NCBI GenBank assembly: GCA_963802945.1
Contig: CAWDKY010000015.1
Location: 448,001 to 512,000 of the forward strand
Direction of reading: 5' to 3'
Origin: an uncultured delta proteobacterium
GTDB taxonomy: Bacteria > Desulfobacterota > RBG-13-43-22
DNA length: 64,000 nt
Below the pieces are notes generated by a model. The model saw nothing but the letters and a program-made list of their open reading frames with translations, was not told the origin of the DNA and did not search any database. A program made the position numbers and the translations under genes. Positions within the stretch are counted from its first letter, which is position 1; every line of letters starts with the position of its first letter. This document shows positions 35,315 to 49,349 of the stretch, one piece after another.

Positions 35315-35404
35315 GGGTCCGAGGATTCTAGGTTTCAAGGATTCAAGGGTTTTAACTTCTATGCCTTTCACTTGAAATCTTGACCCCTCGACCCCTTGAA
35401 TCCT
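35315..35404. repeat. Heptamer-armed palindromic element, copy 3
   Basis: GGATTCTAGG..GGATTCAAGG-AACTTCTATGCCTTTCACT-..CCCTTGAATCC. Confidence 0.78.
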
Positions 35405-35473
35405 AAAAGTAATTTTCATTTTTCCTGGTGCTTAGAGAGCTTAACACTTTATAAGAAAGCAGGAACGTGTGTT

Positions 35474-37689
35474 ATGTCTAAATTTATTGCCGATGCCGCT
35501 ATTCAAGGTGCCTACAACATCGTTTCCAAAGCGGAGGAGACTTTAATAAAGGCTTTGGGAAAATACGGGCCGGATCAGAAGATCGAGTTTCCCAATACCG
35601 CCTATTATCTGCCGATCATTTATTCCATCCTCGGTTTATCGGTAAAGACCCTTGGCGAAGCCCAAAAACCCATGAAGGTGGCCAGAAAACTCTTGCCTGC
35701 ACACATCAAGAACGAGTATCACTTGCCTTATTTGGGGCCGTTACTCGATGCCGGTATGGCCGCTATTTTTGCCGAAGAGATCTCCGAGGTCATCCGCTAT
35801 CTTGAAGATCCAAATTTTTATCTGGTCAGTGAAGATATTGACGAGGCCTCAGGCAGGATCTGGCTGGGTGCGGCCGAAGATACGGTCTTCCGAAAACGAG
35901 GGGTGGAATTTGTGGACGGCACGGCCCCGGGTTTTGCCGCCATTGTCGGTGCCGCCCCGGATCCGGAAACGGCCAAATGGATCGCCGAGGAATATCAGAA
36001 AAAAAATCTCTATGTCTTTATGTGCGCCAACCAGAACGGCACCACCTTTTCTGAACAACTTCTGGAGGCCGGTGTGCAGATCGGCTGGAATACCCGTCTG
36101 GTCCCCTTTGGCCCGGATATCTCGGCTGCGGTCTTTGCCCTGGGTTTTGCCAATCGGGTGGCCATGGCCTTCGGCGGAATCAAACCCGGCGACTATAAAA
36201 AAATGCTGCTCTATAATAAGGATCGTATCTTCGCCTTTGTCAATGCCCTCGGCGCCGTCAGTGCCGAATGGGCGGCCAATGCCGCCGGTTGTTTCAACTG
36301 GGGCTTTCCGACCATCGCCGATACGGACATCCCGGAAATCCTGCCCACCGGGGTCTGCACTTATGAACATTTAGTGGCCAATGTGCGTCATAAGGAAATG
36401 CCGCAAAGATCTATTGAGATCCGGGGACTCAAGGTCAACGTGGCCAATGTGGATATTCCTTTAGCCTATGGCCCAGCCTTCGAAGGGGAACGAGTTCGTA
36501 AGGAAGACCTCTATCTGGAAATGGGCGGTGGAATAAGCCAAGCCACCGAACTAGTCCGGATGGCTGATATGAATGCCGTTGAAGATGGGAAAGTGGAGGT
36601 CATCGGCCCGGATGTTGGTGATATCAAAAAAGGGGCCTCTCTACCATTGGGGGTTATGGTCCAGGTGGCTGGCCGGCAGATGCAGGAGGATTTCGAGCCC
36701 ATCCTGGAAAGGCAGATCCATCATTTGATCAACTATGCCCAGGGTGTTATGCACATTGGGCAAAGGGACATTGCCTGGATCCGTGTCGGCGAATCGGCCA
36801 TACAAAAAGGATTCACTCTAAAAGATATCGGGGTCATCCTTCATGCCAAATTCCATCAGGACTTCGGGGCTATCTTGGATAAGGTCCAGGTCACTCTTTA
36901 CACCAAACAAGGAAGATGTGGAAAAACTGACTCAGGAGGCCCGTCGGATCTACCGCACCCGGGATGAACGGGTGGAGCAGATGACCGATGAGAGTGTGGA
37001 GACCTATTATTCCTGCACCCTGTGTCAGTCCTTCGCCCCCAACCATGTCTGTATGATCAGCCCAGAACGGACCGGACTCTGCGGGGCCTACAACTGGATG
37101 GATTGCAAGGCCTCTTTTGAGATCAACCCCACCGGCCCGAACCAGCCTGTTTTGAAAGGGGAATGTCTGGATCCGAAGCTGGGCCAATGGAAAGGGGTCA
37201 ACGATTTCGTCTACAAGGCCTCCCGCCAAAACATTGAAGGGCTATAATTTATACAGCCTGGTCTATGATCCCATGACCACCTGCGGCTGCTGCGAATGCA
37301 TCGCCGCGGTCTTGCCGTCCTGTAACGGGGTTATGACCGTCAACCGGGAGTATACCGGCATGACCCCTTCGGGCATGAAGTTCACTACCCTGGCCGGGAT
37401 CATGGGTGGCGGGGTCTCCACCCCCGGGTTTGTAGGCCATGGTAAGTTCAATATCACTCAAAAGAAGTTCCTTTCCGGGGACGGGGGTCTGCTACGCATG
37501 GTCTGGATGCCCAAACAGCTTAAAGAAGAACTACGTGATCGATTGATTAAACGCGGAGAAGAGCTGGGCTGCCCTAATTTGATAGACCTAATCGCCGACG
37601 AAACTGTTGGCGAGACCGAAGACGAAATCCTGCCCTGGCTTAAGGAAAAAGGACATCCGGCCCTGTCCATGGAATCGATTGTAGGGTAA
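35474..37689 (+). CDS. acsB: Acetyl-CoA synthase subunit (two +1 breaks at ~36906 and ~37240)
   Basis: FPNTAYYLP, YSCTLCQSFAPNHVC, GLCGA, PMTTCGCCE; rejoined 737 aa. Confidence 0.93.
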
Positions 37690-40866: not shown

Positions 40867-41718
40867 AGTATCGGTTTATAGAAGAGCAGCGGGAGGGTTA
40901 CAAGATCAAGAGTATGTGTAAAGTGTTGAAGGTATCCCGAAGTGGTTATTGCCTGGGAGAGACGTCAGCCGAGCCTGCGCCAGAGAGGCCATGAGGAACT
41001 GCTGAGGCAGATACGGGAGATCCACCATCAAAGTCGAAGTCTTTATGGGAGTCCGCGGATTACCGCGGAACTGAAGAGACAGGGGTATCGATGTGGGAAG
41101 AAACGGGTTGCCAGGGTCATGAAAGAGCACTCGATAAGAGCCTCGGTGAAGAAAAGGAGATTCAGACGGACCACCGATTCACGGCATCCTTATGCCTTGG
41201 CTTCTAACTTACTGATTGACCGGAGGCAGACCGATGGGGTATGGGCATCGGATATGACGTTTGTGCCTACTTCTGAAGGATGGCTCTATGTGGCCGCGGT
41301 GATGAAGGTGAAAAGTAGGAAGATCATCGGGCTTTCCATGAGCGACAAGTTGTCTCAGGAGCTGGCTTCTGCTGCGCTCAGGGATGCTGTGGGCAGGCAA
41401 AGCCCCACGGAAGGGTTGATTCATCATTCCGATCGAGGCCGGCAGTATGCCAGCTATGCCTATCAGGAGCTTTTAAGAGAATACGGCCTGATCCCGAGTA
41501 TGAGCCGAAGCGGCAATTGCTATGATAATGCCTATGTGGAGTCGTTCTTTGGTACCCTGAAAACGGAACTGGTTCATGGGGAGCGGTACCGTTCAAGGCT
41601 GGAGGCCAGGCTAAGTATTTTTGAGTACGTGGAAGTATTTTATAATCGTCAGAGGAGTCATTCGGCCTTAGGGTACAGAAGCCCCGAGCAGTATGAAAGG
41701 CTCCTTAATGAAACTTAA
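40863..41718 (+). CDS. IS3 transposase OrfB (DDE); frameshift near 40950
   Basis: YGSPRI, WASDMT, HHSDRGRQY, CYDNAYVESFF, YNRQRSHSALGY. Confidence 0.88.
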
Positions 41719-42218: not shown

Positions 42219-42965
42219 ATGACTCAAACCTATGGGCATTTTTGTCCGGTGGCCCGGACCCTGGAAAAAATCGGTGACAAATGGTCTTTGCTCATTATTC
42301 GCGATCTCTTAACCGGACCGCAGAGATTCACAGACCTGCTGGGTTATTTAAACCATATCACCCCCAAATGGCTCACCCAACGTCTTCGAGAATTGGAATC
42401 GTCTGGGATCATAGAACGGGACAAAAAGGCCGGACGGCGTCAGGTCTGGTACAAGTTGACCACCGCTGGAGGCGAGTTGGGTCCTATAGTGGACGCTCTG
42501 GCCACCTGGGGATTTCGTTATGCCATGCGGCCTCCGATCCCGGGTGAGGTTGTCCATCCAGATCTGCTGATGAGAGCGCTGACTTCATCACTCAACAAAA
42601 AAGGTAAACGTTTACCACGGCCGGCCAAGTGGTTGATGCAGTTCCCTCAAGCGCAATATTCCCTATCTTTTAATAATGACTGGTCAAGTTGCCGGGAAGA
42701 GGACCCCAATTCCGACATAAAAATTACCACGACTCCTGAAATTTGGGCCACCGTTTTTACAGCACCGCGGTCGGATCGAAGTCGCTTGGCCAAGACCATC
42801 CAGATTGACGGGGCTCCGGATCGGATTGAGGAATTTCTGCATACATTCGGAATTCAAAACCAAGAAGACAAACCGGTTCCTGATTCTATCGATACAGGCA
42901 ATAAACGAAAAAACCCTAAGCTTACTAAAGAAGGAAAGAAACATGAAGGTATCAGACAACAATAG
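42219..42965 (+). CDS. HxlR-family winged-helix regulator with C-terminal extension
   Basis: YGHFCPVARTLEKIGDKWSLLIIRDLL.GPQRF. Confidence 0.88.
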   Translation: MTQTYGHFCPVARTLEKIGDKWSLLIIRDLLTGPQRFTDLLGYLNHITPKWLTQRLRELESSGIIERDKKAGRRQVWYKLTTAGGELGPIVDALATWGFRYAMRPPIPGEVVHPDLLMRALTSSLNKKGKRLPRPAKWLMQFPQAQYSLSFNNDWSSCREEDPNSDIKITTTPEIWATVFTAPRSDRSRLAKTIQIDGAPDRIEEFLHTFGIQNQEDKPVPDSIDTGNKRKNPKLTKEGKKHEGIRQQ

Positions 42966-43941
42966 ACCGGGCAAGCTCTATCCCTCGGGAACCATCAAAG
43001 AAATCTGCATCAAAGCAGGGGCCGATGATGCCGGCCTGGTGGAGATCAATCGTAATCCACTCAAAGGGGAAAGGGAAGGTATTTTACGCGTCTATCCCCG
43101 CACAAGGAGCATTATTTCATTGGTCAAGGTCAATAATCGGGAAAATATTCAGAGCCCGGCCCGCTACGTAGCCAATGAAGAATATCATCACACGGGAGAT
43201 AAAATTTCCAGCATTTCCAGGGAAATTCTCCATCGTCTGAACGAACTCGGCCTTCGGGGGGTCGCTGTCAATAAATCCTGGCCCATGGATTTGGGACGAT
43301 GGCCGGGCAAGATCTGGGATGTCAGTCACAAAATCATGGCCGTGGAAGCCGGTCTCGGGCAGATGGGCCTTAACCGATTGGTCCTGCATCCGAAGTACGG
43401 TAGTTTTATCCAATTGACCAGTATCTTGGTCGATGGTGAAATAGACGTCTACGATCATCCCATGGAGGAAAACCCCTGCCTAAACTGTAATCTGTGTGCG
43501 GCCGTCTGTCCAACCGGAGCCATCACCAAAGGGGAACCATTCGATTTATTGACCTGCAGCACCCATACCTACCGGGACAACATGGTGGGCTTCCTAAACT
43601 GGGTGGAGTCTATGGTGACTTCTCAAAACATGGAGGAATACCGCTCCCATTTCAACGATCGGGAGACGTCTTTTATGTGGCAGTCCCTGATGTTTCGAAT
43701 GAGCTATCGCTGCAGTTATTGTATGGCCGTGTGTCCAGCCGGGGAAGAGATCAAAACGGATTACCTTAAAAATAAGAAGGGCCATGTTGAAAGAATATTG
43801 AAGCCCCTCCGAGACCGGTGTGAACCGGTTTACGTTATGGCCGGATCCAAAGCGGAAGCGAGGGCCAAACGCAATCCCAATAAAGAAGTGAGAATTGTAC
43901 CTGGGATAATACGGACGCCACCAAAGGTAAAGCAAACTTGA
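42943..43941 (+). CDS. QueG/reductive-dehalogenase-like 4Fe-4S protein
   Basis: GADDAG, SHKIMAVEAGLGQMG, HPKYGS, CLNCNLCAAVCP, CSYCMAVCP. Confidence 0.75.
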   Translation: MKVSDNNRPGKLYPSGTIKEICIKAGADDAGLVEINRNPLKGEREGILRVYPRTRSIISLVKVNNRENIQSPARYVANEEYHHTGDKISSISREILHRLNELGLRGVAVNKSWPMDLGRWPGKIWDVSHKIMAVEAGLGQMGLNRLVLHPKYGSFIQLTSILVDGEIDVYDHPMEENPCLNCNLCAAVCPTGAITKGEPFDLLTCSTHTYRDNMVGFLNWVESMVTSQNMEEYRSHFNDRETSFMWQSLMFRMSYRCSYCMAVCPAGEEIKTDYLKNKKGHVERILKPLRDRCEPVYVMAGSKAEARAKRNPNKEVRIVPGIIRTPPKVKQT

Positions 43942-46290: not shown

Positions 46291-46454
46291 AAAGAAAATA
46301 GGATTCGAGGTCATCCTTCGATCAGCTTATTTTCATGCATCGCGGTGTCACGCCCCTGGCCGAGTACCGCCATAGCCCTTGGTACAGTGGTCCTTGAGGT
46401 GCTTGGTAAGCAGGAGGAAATGAAGAACTTCTTACCTTAGGAAAGGAGCATGTT

Positions 46455-48681
46455 ATGGGAGAATGGAAAAAGACATCCTGTGTATTATGAGGCAATCGGT
46501 GCGGGCTCGAGGTTCGAGTCGAAAATAATAAAATCGTAAAAGTCCGCGGAGGCAAGGACAACCCGATCAGTGAGGGATATATATGCAGAAAAGGTACGAA
46601 TGTTGCCTACCATCAGCACAATAAAGACCGGGTGCTCTTTCCGCTTAAGAAGGTTGGAAATGGTTTTCAGCGGGTCTCCTGGGACCAGGCCATCAGTGAG
46701 ATTTCCGAAAAACTAAAAGCTATCCGCGACCAGCATGGCCCCCGCGCTTTAGCTTCTCTGGTCGGCGGCGGTGAATTTGCTTTTCTGAGTGCGTCTTTCC
46801 CTATTCGATTGGTGCGTAGACTCGGTTCACGCTATAACTATTCCGCTGCAAACCAGGAGTTTGCCGGTAGGTATTGGGCACACGGCTTGACCTTGGGAAG
46901 TCAAAATATTCAGATGGAATCTGATTTTGAGAACTGTGACATGCTGATGCTGGTTGGGAAAAATTCCATGATGAGCCATCATTTCCCCCAGGCGCGGCGA
47001 AGATTGACGAAGATGTCCAAAGACCCTGACAGGCTTCTGGTCGTAGTGGATCCGCGGGTTTCCGAAACCGCCAGAATTGCCGATATTCATCTGGCGATTC
47101 GCCCCGGCACCGATGCCCTCCTGATCAAGTCGATGATTTCTATCATCCTCAATGAGGGTATTTATAACAATGAATATATTGACAAACATGTGGACGGGTT
47201 CAACGAGATCTTGCCCTGGTTTTCCGGCTTTGATGTCAAGATCGCGCTAAAGGTTTGTGATCTTGATTATAATCTGGTGTTTAAGGTCTGCCGGGAACTC
47301 GCCACCCGACGTTCGAGCATTCTGGATGATCTCGGGATATTGATGAACCGGCACAGTGCGTTGGTATCCTATCTGCTGGTCATGTTGCTGGCCCTTTGTG
47401 GTCGTATTGGCGTGACGGGCGGAAATTATTTACTCGGGGGGGGATTGGGGCCGGATCCCAGAGATCCTAAAGTCTGGAGAACACTATTGACGGACATTCC
47501 CGCCATCAATGGCAATTTTCCGCCTAATGTTTTGCAGGAAGAAATCATGTATGATCATCCGGACCGACTGAGGGCCGTGCTCTGCTACGCCTCGAATCCA
47601 TTGCGTTCCTACGCCGATACGACGGCCTATGAAAATGCCTTTCAACAGCTTGATCTGCTGGTGGTGGCCGACATTGCCATGAGCGAGACAGCAGCCCTGG
47701 CCCATTATGTCCTCCCCTGCAAAACCGCTTTTGAATCCTGGGAAGGGGATCCCGGTGGGGGTTTTTCGAAGGTCTACGCCCGGATGAGGTCTCCGGTATT
47801 GGAAGCGGAAGGAGAGCAGAAAGAAAATGCCGAGATATTCACCCTGCTGGCCGACGCTATGGGGCTGGTTCCCCCCATTCCTGAACCACTGTACGAGGCG
47901 GCCGGAAGCGGCAACCTCAAGGAATACGGTCAGAAATTAGGGGAATATATGAGGACTTCCCCGGAAAGTGGGAAGGTCCTAAACTTTATTATAGCGAAAA
48001 CCTTGGGCAGTGCCATGGGTTCGGCGCATCTGGCCAGTATCTTCCCCTTGTTTATGCAATTATCTTCGGATCGCCAGGAAGAGGCAGCCAAAGCAGGTTT
48101 TCCCGTAGGACCGGACCAAGGCCTGTCTATGTATCAAGCCATCATGAGCCATCCTGAAGGGATACTGATCGGCATACGCGATCCAGAGAAGAACCTGGAG
48201 GTCAATATAGCAACCAAGAACAAGAAAATACAACTTTTTAATCCGGAAGTGGTTGATTGGATAAAGAAAATAAATCCTATGGATGAAGAAGAACCAGCTC
48301 AAGCCCGATGAGCATTTCCCTCTGATCCTGATGGCTGGAAGGCATATGGACATGAATGCCAATACAGGCATGAGAGACCCGGCTTGGAACAAAGACAAAA
48401 GAGCCTGCACCCTGGCCATAAATCCTTCTGATGCAGAAACGCTGGGCATAGTTGACAAACAGATGGTCAGGGTCATCACAGAAGCAGGCGAGGAAACCCT
48501 AGAGGCCGAAGTAACCCAAGATGTCAGAAAAGGCCAGGTCATTATACCGCAAGGGTTTGGCCTGGTCTACGATGGTGTTGCCTACGGCGCTAACGTCAAC
48601 CGATTAGCTAAAAACACCAACCGGGACTTTGTCGGAACCCCTATGCACCGTTATGTTCCCTGCCGGGTGGAGGCGGTTTAA
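46455..48681 (+). CDS. Molybdopterin (DMSO-reductase family) oxidoreductase with in-frame UGA at codon 12; +1 break at ~48290
   Basis: MGEWKKTSCVL(UGA)GNRCGLEV..DNPISEGYICRKG in frame with ORF 46632; RVSWDQA, VVDPRVSETA, IRPGTD, ETAALAHYVLP; GAAAGGAG RBS; ~741 aa. Confidence 0.88.
46504..46520 (+). promoter_or_regulatory. Putative bacterial SECIS hairpin
   Basis: GGCTCGA-GGT-TCGAGTC stem-loop; G-led apical loop 20 nt after UGA 46488-46490. Confidence 0.6.
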
Positions 48682-49349
48682 TGAACATCCGGAATTATAC
48701 CTTCGAAGAATTTGTGGAACGAGTAAAGGCGTTTCACGGCTATGAGGCGCCCGGCGTCATCATTGGAGGCTTTATGATTGACCTTGCTTATCTCCACCTG
48801 CCAGAAGTAGGGCTTTTGGATGCCCTCAGTGAGACTCCGAAATGCTTGCCTGATGCGATACAGCTATTGACACCTTGTACGGTGGGTAATGGCTGGCTCA
48901 CCGTGGTGGATGTTGGGCGGTATGCCCTGACTCTTTATAATAAGGAGAGTGGGGAAGGGGTAAGGGTGTTTGTGGAGACAGAGAAACTGGATCCCTGGAC
49001 GGAATTAAAGACCTGGTTCTTCAAGCTGAAACCGAAGAAAGAGCAAGATACGGCCCTGCTTTTATCACAAATTAAAGAAGCAGGATCTGGAATCTGTGGG
49101 GTGCAGAAGGTGAAAGTAGCAGACCAATTCATCCAACGTCGCCCCCGTGGCAGCCTCACCGTTTGTCCAAAATGCCGTGAAGGATATCCGCTGGATGATG
49201 GACCTTTGTGTTTGATTTGTTCCGGCAAGGAAATTTTATATTTATCCTTTAGTTCGAAAATAATGCCCGCTCACTTAATAAGCACTGTTTTCATTTCTGA
49301 TGGTGCCACGCCCCAACAAGCGGGGCAGGGCGGTTTAACAAGAATTTGA
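48681..49349 (+). CDS. FmdE/FwdE-family protein
   Basis: FHGYEAPG, ETPKCLPDAIQLLTPCTVGNG, CPKCRE..CLIC. Confidence 0.85.
   Translation: MNIRNYTFEEFVERVKAFHGYEAPGVIIGGFMIDLAYLHLPEVGLLDALSETPKCLPDAIQLLTPCTVGNGWLTVVDVGRYALTLYNKESGEGVRVFVETEKLDPWTELKTWFFKLKPKKEQDTALLLSQIKEAGSGICGVQKVKVADQFIQRRPRGSLTVCPKCREGYPLDDGPLCLICSGKEILYLSFSSKIMPAHLISTVFISDGATPQQAGQGGLTRI

Follow-up and report, generated by a model that had tools for sequence, protein, structure and literature searches.

The 64,000-nucleotide (nt) stretch of an uncultured sediment bacterium analysed here, hereafter the window, carries at positions 46455-48681 of its forward strand an oxidoreductase gene whose twelfth codon is an in-frame TGA. 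Judged from its sequence, this is one gene of about 741 residues that belongs to the molybdopterin-oxidoreductase (MopB/DMSO-reductase) superfamily. A preliminary description, made from the letters of the window, had proposed that the TGA places selenocysteine (Sec) at the second cysteine (Cys) ligand of an N-terminal [4Fe-4S] cluster in an uncharacterised subfamily, and that a hairpin resembling a selenocysteine insertion sequence (SECIS) lies 3' of it. The features of the gene are as follows.

46442-46448, + strand: ribosome-binding site AAAGGAG, 6 nt 5' of the start codon, from direct reading of the sequence
46455-46457, + strand: start codon ATG, which opens the frame of the oxidoreductase gene
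46455-48293, + strand: first frame, codons 1 to about 613, with the Fe4S4 and molybdopterin domains; as assembled it extends to TGA 48309-48311
46479-46481, + strand: codon for Cys9, ligand 1 of C-x2-U-x3-C...C
46488-46490, + strand: in-frame TGA, codon 12, predicted to be read as Sec; aligned to the second Cys ligand (TGC or TGT) of the homologues
46500-46502, + strand: codon for Cys16, ligand 3
46504-46520, + strand: SECIS-like hairpin, with the 5' arm GGCUCGA at 46504-46510, the loop GGU at 46511-46513 and the 3' arm UCGAGUC at 46514-46520
46584-46586, + strand: codon for Cys44, ligand 4
48285-48295, + strand: one extra base in (GAA)3 then CC, giving a +1 shift near codon 613
48294-48681, + strand: second frame, with the C-terminal Molydop_binding domain and the stop TAA 48679-48681; listed as an open reading frame (ORF) at 48283..48681

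Direct reading confirmed the ribosome-binding site, the ATG at 46455 and the in-frame UGA within CxxUxxxC, all of which the preliminary description had joined to the listed ORF 46632..48311. Translation from the ATG gives MGEWKKTSC-VL-U-GNR-C...C44 in the frame of that ORF, and no further stop lies in frame between TGA 46488-46490 and the ORF. The ORF list starts at GTG 46632 because codons 13-59 hold no in-frame ATG, GTG or TTG. When the TGA was read through, a Pfam search placed Molybdop_Fe4S4 (PF04879) at residues 4-55 (E 1.1e-14), so that the N-terminal [4Fe-4S] domain is completed upstream of the listed ORF, as had been claimed. Molybdopterin (PF00384) follows at residues 59-467 and Molydop_binding (PF01568) in the second frame, which is the domain order of the MopB/DMSO reductase superfamily.

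The cysteines of the N-terminal motif bind a [4Fe-4S] cluster in the molybdopterin oxidoreductase family, and phmmer alignments put C9, U12 and C16 on the C-x2-C-x3-C of solved formate dehydrogenases. The motif begins at residue 9, with 8 residues between it and the protein start; therefore no export signal is expected, and the predicted enzyme should be cytoplasmic, without a signal peptide. Gene callers shorten UGA-bearing genes of this kind and drop the entire cluster domain. For example, the source gene is recorded in the database as a 559-residue protein, its counterpart P0130 from a near-identical strain as 682 residues, and the protein of a homologue, L106, as 723 residues.

Recurrence of TGA at codon 12 and the downstream hairpin

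Across 27 homologous loci in 21 genomes of the order, codon 12 is TGA at three and TGC or TGT at 24, which is the Cys/UGA alternation that the preliminary description had suggested looking for. The three TGA loci are the source gene and two genes of a paralogous clade, in G004 and G010. Of 401 genomes sampled evenly across the phylum, 80 had a match; among the matches listed, only three had any stop in the first 148 residues, in each case the codon-12 TGA of the same three genes, so TGA is absent from the other three Cys codons and from the rest of this region. A scan of species genomes with the degenerate pattern C-[VA]-x-TGA-x3-C-G-L-E-V gave 12 matches, ten of which are true homologues with TGA at codon 12, from metagenome-assembled genomes (MAGs) of Thermodesulfobacteriota/'Deltaproteobacteria', and two of which are chance matches (Burkholderiales, Alphaproteobacteria). 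In six of the ten homologues the frame stays open for 743-750 codons beyond the Cys9 codon; two others continue past the edge of the locus, and the last two have interrupted frames. Metagenomes, scanned with a stricter pattern, returned 12 contigs, all of them true homologues (10 distinct sequences, one identical to a genome match); seven of them contain 743-744 codons, three extend beyond the contig end, and the other two are interrupted. The interrupted frames (L104, L105, L131, and L134, which end after 56, 250, 454, and 167 codons, respectively) may be due to decay of these copies or to assembly errors in the MAGs and metagenome contigs.

Over the eight codons 5' of the TGA, the residues W-K-K-T-[ST]-C-V-L are kept while synonymous bases vary; translation therefore begins 5' of the UGA and continues across it. 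The TGA genes of G004 and G010 (L042 and L043), each of 752 codons with no other stop, share 80% residue identity, with a synonymous divergence (dS) of 1.21 and a ratio of nonsynonymous to synonymous divergence (dN/dS) of 0.11; the UGA has thus been retained through long divergence in working genes. The dN/dS of the source gene against its orthologues is 0.12-0.17, and that of intact pairs 0.14-0.17. Taken as sequence evidence, these comparisons indicate that the codon-12 TGA is most probably a real codon and not a chance nonsense mutation. There is hardly any likelihood that it is a base-calling or assembly error for TGC in an ordinary Cys gene: the source assembly (G000; 72 contigs, 6.7% contamination) is error-prone and in the closest orthologues the same flanks surround TGC, but the errors seen are indels, not substitutions, and the call of P0130 in another assembly likewise begins at codon 60. 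In addition, positions 46325-46507 are reproduced exactly, TGA included, by a 183-nt contig of run X2, although this is not independent proof because the run may be the source sample.

The hairpin at 46504-46520 comprises seven pairs, including one G-U. The 7-bp stem, the GGU loop, and the start of the stem 13 nt after the UGA all agree with the preliminary description; the loop, which had been put at +20, was found at 21-23 nt after the UGA. Considered singly, the hairpin is only mildly unusual, and the weight is carried by comparative data: a 33-nt stretch folds at -9.0 kcal/mol (z = -2.0; 7 of 200 shuffles as stable), and the fold of the 63 nt after the UGA is no better than that of shuffles (z = 0.07). 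For the comparison, two registers were defined, counted from the U of UGA. Register 1 has the 5' arm at 17-23, the loop (GGU) at 24-26, and the 3' arm at 27-33, with at least 6 of 7 pairs; register 2 has the 5' arm at 12-20, the loop (GGA) at 21-23, and the 3' arm at 24-32, with at least 8 of 9 pairs. By this criterion, which was set after the TGA genes had been seen, a G-led hairpin in either register is present in every TGA gene, genomic (11 of 11) or metagenomic (12 of 12), and in 3 of 45 distinct Cys genes; conservation of the hairpin had been named as a check. Two of the three qualifying Cys genes are the closest orthologues of the source gene.

Individual genes point the same way. In L101, a C-G to U-A double change preserves the first stem at the cost of an Arg-to-Gln replacement, and in L106 a G-U pair of the hairpin is replaced by A-U. 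The mean energy of the +10 to +42 stretch is -8.65 kcal/mol in TGA genes versus -5.29 kcal/mol in Cys genes (Mann-Whitney p = 0.0002, a value that is overstated because the criterion was post hoc and the sequences are related). The SECIS of Escherichia coli fdhF offers a likeness: it, too, is a short in-coding hairpin just 3' of the UGA, with a small G-led loop (GGU or GGA in the genes compared here) about 20-26 nt from the UGA. The difference is that the two show no sequence relation and that the source protein family uses two alternative registers.

Selenocysteine machinery and the state of the source copy

A search of G000 for the genes of Sec synthesis and insertion, a further check named in the preliminary description, found selA (627 bits, open frame of 502 residues), selD (392 bits), which has one TGA within its frame, a single selB locus (G000:C30:178945-180834, L001), and one tRNA-Sec. 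The tRNA-Sec scores 74 bits; its anticodon is UCA, its extra arm is long, and its discriminator base is G. The selB gene lies in three frames, with three one-base insertions relative to the intact selB of G005, G011, G004, and G001. Four of the five relatives searched have an intact selB of 641-656 open codons, and selB was not found in the fifth, G010, which is 85% complete. Intact SelB proteins of 638 residues, possibly from other strains, share 98% identity with the unshifted part of the G000 SelB, and an exact look-up returned the G000 selB fragments alone in their clusters.

The preliminary description had also offered UGA-to-Cys recoding as an alternative, and this found no support. UGA can be decoded as Cys when a Cys-charged, tRNA-Sec-like tRNA of the tRNA-ReC type is delivered by SelB, and such decoding would sit well with the Cys/UGA alternation at codon 12 and with the second selB-like gene (279 bits) of the relative G004. 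However, ARAGORN identified 51 tRNA/tmRNA genes in G000, among which there is no second UCA tRNA (a missing tRNA is possible in an assembly of 72 contigs). By tRNA identity rules, the sole UCA tRNA is a canonical tRNA-Sec in its shape and its discriminator G, the sole tRNA-Cys has the anticodon GCA, and G000 has a single selB locus together with selA and selD. We consider Cys recoding very improbable. The second selB-like gene of G004 (L113, G004:C29:147749-149641) is full-length, with 650 open codons; the main selB of that genome scores 386 bits, and the genome also encodes the Sec form of the oxidoreductase.

The preliminary description did not mention that the source copy is broken in frame: the first frame stops at TGA 48309-48311, and Molydop_binding is encoded in the +1 frame. 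At 48285-48295, seven same-genus orthologues (82-88% identity) have one base fewer and single frames of 739-766 codons. P0130 (682 residues, encoded on a contig of 1.09 Mb in the other assembly) differs from the source gene at 2 of 552 positions in the first frame and 0 of 129 in the second, and it reads through the break in one frame (MDEENQLKPDEHF). Its start at codon 60, like that of the truncated call in G000, implies the same upstream stop. A programmed frameshift was rejected, as was a natural FwdB/FwdD-like split of the C-terminal domain, since the site is read in a single frame in all seven orthologues and in P0130.

Indels are common in G000. Over 118 kb aligned with G005, 44 clean indels are not divisible by three; 17 shorten the G000 frame, 7 shorten the G005 frame, 8 are unclear, and 12 are intergenic. 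Within the window, acsB (acetyl-CoA synthase, ACS/CODH beta) is split into three overlapping same-strand ORFs (35396-36967, 36843-37247, and 37234-37689), which hold CdhC, then positions 1-96 of ACS_CODH_B_C, then positions 97-245; two frame breaks in a core gene are a sign of indel errors in the assembly. Because P0130 has a single frame and the assembly is indel-prone, as the split acsB and selB indicate, we read the +1 break as probably an assembly error and less likely a strain-specific lesion. In no listed sequencing run is the share of the sampled words above 18%, and no RNA run is among those listed; the four runs compared with the source DNA gave only fragments.

We hold the Sec reading with high confidence for the family as a whole and, provided that the frame break is discounted as probably an error of assembly, with good confidence for the source copy. 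It is likely, as far as sequence can tell, that the gene at 46455-48681 encodes Sec at the second ligand of its N-terminal cluster, directed by the hairpin. The proposal of the preliminary description is thus upheld by the recurrence of UGA, the UGA-linked hairpin, the Sec machinery, and the absence of Sec/Cys-His at the molybdenum/tungsten (Mo/W) site (see below). As for the simple nonsense mutation that it had weighed against Sec, the X2 contig keeps the TGA, the machinery is present, and homologues carry UGA at this position.

Several points weigh against this reading. The source copy carries the +1 frame break, and the break site at 48285-48295 is covered only by contigs of relatives, which have one base fewer, and by no contig of the same strain. 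With selB broken by three insertions as well, a lineage that is losing the Sec trait would look alike. The source copy is also the sole TGA gene found in its own clade of eight (seven Cys, one Sec), and the genome and metagenome pattern scans returned no other TGA gene from that clade; 4 of the 22 other TGA genes (L104, L105, L131, and L134) are interrupted further downstream. On the side of the hairpin, the criterion is post hoc, energy by itself does not separate the two classes (6 of 45 Cys genes are at -9.0 kcal/mol or lower), and a search of 46400-46700 against Rfam, SECIS families included, gave no match at E up to 10. Finally, selenium incorporation is a prediction for all members of the family. 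With regard to the clade, two clade-A-like proteins, P0100 and P0118, start at Met48 and are without the Fe4S4 domain, and they may hide further UGA copies.

Some of these points could also be explained if the source copy were a dying gene, in which a TGC-to-TGA nonsense mutation was joined by a +1 frameshift in a strain with a broken selB, and an intact Cys copy on contig C65 was the functional one. That second copy (L044, G000:C65:5600-7928; 86% identity) has TGT at codon 12 and 740 open codons. The two lesions in the source copy, the three one-base insertions in selB relative to G005, G011, G004, and G001, and the lack of any other TGA in its own clade are what such decay would leave. Yet more than 20 other genes have UGA at precisely the codon where this stop falls, and the stop is followed by an intact hairpin identical to theirs. 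Moreover, P0130 of the near-identical strain is free of the frame break and still begins at the same truncated codon 60, and G000 breaks frames about once per 5-7 kb, acsB in the window included. The dN/dS of the source gene is not raised, selD retains its UGA, and C65 may belong to another strain, given the 6.7% contamination. We therefore regard a dying gene as unlikely, with the residual doubt that the source copy in this one strain might be decaying. A second oxidoreductase copy is likewise present in G005.

Proposed origin of the Sec codon

To place the source gene, a tree of 49 rows was built from sequences of 450 codons or more, after removal of the first 30 alignment columns; L104 and L105, which are too short, and the metagenome loci were left out. 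Eight Sec and two Cys genes form one clade (support 100), and the source gene is the sole Sec member within another clade of eight (support 100). The minimum number of Sec/Cys changes on the tree is three, and the starred branches force at least two. Sliding windows of 30 nt revealed a mosaic at the 5' end of the source gene, which is delimited as follows.

46422-46560 (about 33 nt 5' to about 70 nt 3' of the TGA), + strand: putative gene-conversion tract, approximate limits, from sliding 30-nt windows

Within this tract, the source gene is 90-96% identical to the same-genus Sec genes of the other clade, falling to about 55% further on, and 27 of 27 bases upstream of the TGA are identical to those of the other-clade Sec genes. 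Against the TGT members of its own clade the pattern is the reverse: identity is 63-73% in exactly the same tract and 83-93% elsewhere. Constraint on the SECIS cannot explain the upstream identity because other Sec genes vary in the upstream codons. The mosaic suggests, as its simplest account, a gene conversion from the Sec clade into the clade of the source gene. In G011 and G012, the sister genes share this tract and have TGC, and their hairpin is intact; in G005 and G001, where the sister genes also have TGC, the hairpin is decaying. This distribution fits later single-base reversions to Cys, in which both the direction and the order of events are reconstructed from the sequences.

The chain of events that we propose runs as follows. 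SelB and Sec-tRNA(Sec) would read the codon-12 UGA as Sec, directed by the hairpin at 46504-46520, and selenium would replace sulfur as one of the four ligands of the [4Fe-4S] cluster (C9, U12, C16, and C44). The N-terminal cluster would pass electrons to or from the pterin cofactor, and the selenium, once inserted and bound to iron, may tune the potential or the stability of the cluster. The Sec codon and the SECIS would have arrived together when about 100 nt were converted from a paralogue bearing Sec, and TGA would later have become TGC in sister species; the +1 break at 48285-48295, be it an assembly error or a strain-specific lesion, would be no part of this design. In its fullest form, the proposal is that of a portable 'Sec cassette', about 100 nt with the start codon, the UGA, and the SECIS, which was copied between paralogue clades by gene conversion, exchanged a sulfur for a selenium ligand in a second enzyme in one step, and was reverted by a single change from TGA to TGC in the sisters; the source protein would then be the first enzyme of the molybdopterin type to have selenium as a ligand of a [4Fe-4S] cluster. 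We give this composite proposal about an even chance of being correct.

Enzyme identity, known selenoproteins and neighbouring genes

Among solved structures, the protein was found in phmmer searches to be closest, at about 30% identity, to the HDCR FdhF (E 1.8e-40), to other formate dehydrogenases, and to acetylene hydratase (E 2.6e-36). All NCBIfam matches were far below the cut-off (e.g., TIGR01591 (Fdh-alpha), 224 versus 666 bits, and TIGR03129, 55 versus 328 bits), and the database names for the family are 'molybdopterin-dependent oxidoreductase' or a generic COG name. In an alignment of moderate confidence, E135-F136 (46857-46862) occupies the position of the Sec/Cys-His that provides the Mo/W ligand in formate dehydrogenase. 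The stretch YNYSAANQEF, which includes these two residues, is conserved in all homologues looked at, and the Sec/Cys-His motif of the formate dehydrogenase and FwdB Mo/W site is absent from the oxidoreductase in this alignment.

In well-studied selenoenzymes, Sec is nearly always a catalytic residue or a ligand of the active metal, and the role of selenium as a ligand of an electron-transfer cluster has been deduced only from Cys homologues. The oxidoreductase family provides natural, closely related Sec and Cys versions of one [4Fe-4S] site, some of them, in the clade of the source gene, one base apart with the hairpin retained. Such a pair makes the effect of selenium on the cluster testable by expression, electron paramagnetic resonance or redox titration, and selenium K-edge spectroscopy. 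The 5' mosaic, for its part, suggests how a Sec codon and its SECIS may move between paralogues as a unit.

Table 1 of a recent survey (PMC13188914, 2026) lists 119 prokaryotic selenoprotein families and subfamilies, among which FdhA and FwdB are the only ones from the MopB superfamily, and the table has no molybdopterin oxidoreductase with Sec in the N-terminal cluster motif. FdhA/FdhH and FwdB resemble the source enzyme in superfamily and domain order and in being selenoproteins that use UGA with a downstream hairpin; a further likeness is the FmdE-family gene that adjoins the source gene. They differ in that their Sec is a ligand of Mo/W in U-H-x-P (PMC13188914), whereas that of the source enzyme would lie in C-x2-U-x3-C. 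Sec in a predicted Fe-S motif, at a site where homologues have a cluster Cys, is likewise listed for HdrA (CxxU), FrhD/VhuD (CxxU), the Fe-S cluster domain protein NF005503 (UxxC), CopZ-like 2Fe-2S-binding proteins, and the ferredoxin HgcB (PMC13188914), but the folds of these proteins are unrelated to that of the source oxidoreductase.

The survey gives a predicted metal or Fe-S cluster binding for about 20% of selenoprotein families and states that nearly all such metal-ligand roles are deduced from Cys homologues. It counts a different Sec position in the same architecture as a distinct subfamily; by that rule, the source family is a new subfamily and not a new principle. A full-text literature search and passages of a 2022 review (PMC9312934) gave nothing closer. 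A preprint (10.64898/2026.09.15.751765) notes SECIS-like features at 'other molybdopterin oxidoreductases' without detail, and these might include the source family.

Directly downstream of the oxidoreductase gene lies a further gene of note.

48681-49349, + strand: FmdE-family gene with a treble-clef zinc finger, identified by domain search

This gene is likely a helper of the oxidoreductase. The other neighbours in the window encode an HxlR regulator, two Fe-S proteins, a CBS protein, and a PNPOx-like protein, as well as NMO/FabK-like, HpaB-like, and carboxyl transferase proteins; the genes for HxlR and the Fe-S proteins are upstream. Elsewhere, Sec homologues are found behind MarR regulators and before an FmdE-MoCF_biosynth fusion (L108) or a CoA transferase (L106). 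The HpaB-like, NMO/FabK-like and carboxyl transferase genes, the CoA transferase of L106 and the MarR/HxlR regulators suggest a role in an acyl-CoA or aromatic-acid pathway. The HxlR-family ORF, in the region 42219-43941, encodes 248 residues with the domain at 18-103 and shares about 160 nt with the Fe-S protein ORF that follows on the same strand; the ORF may be over-long, or this may be a further frame error. An ORF for an insertion sequence (IS)-type transposase (HTH_21, rve, rve_2/rve_3) is present at 40942-41718, about 5 kb before the gene cluster.

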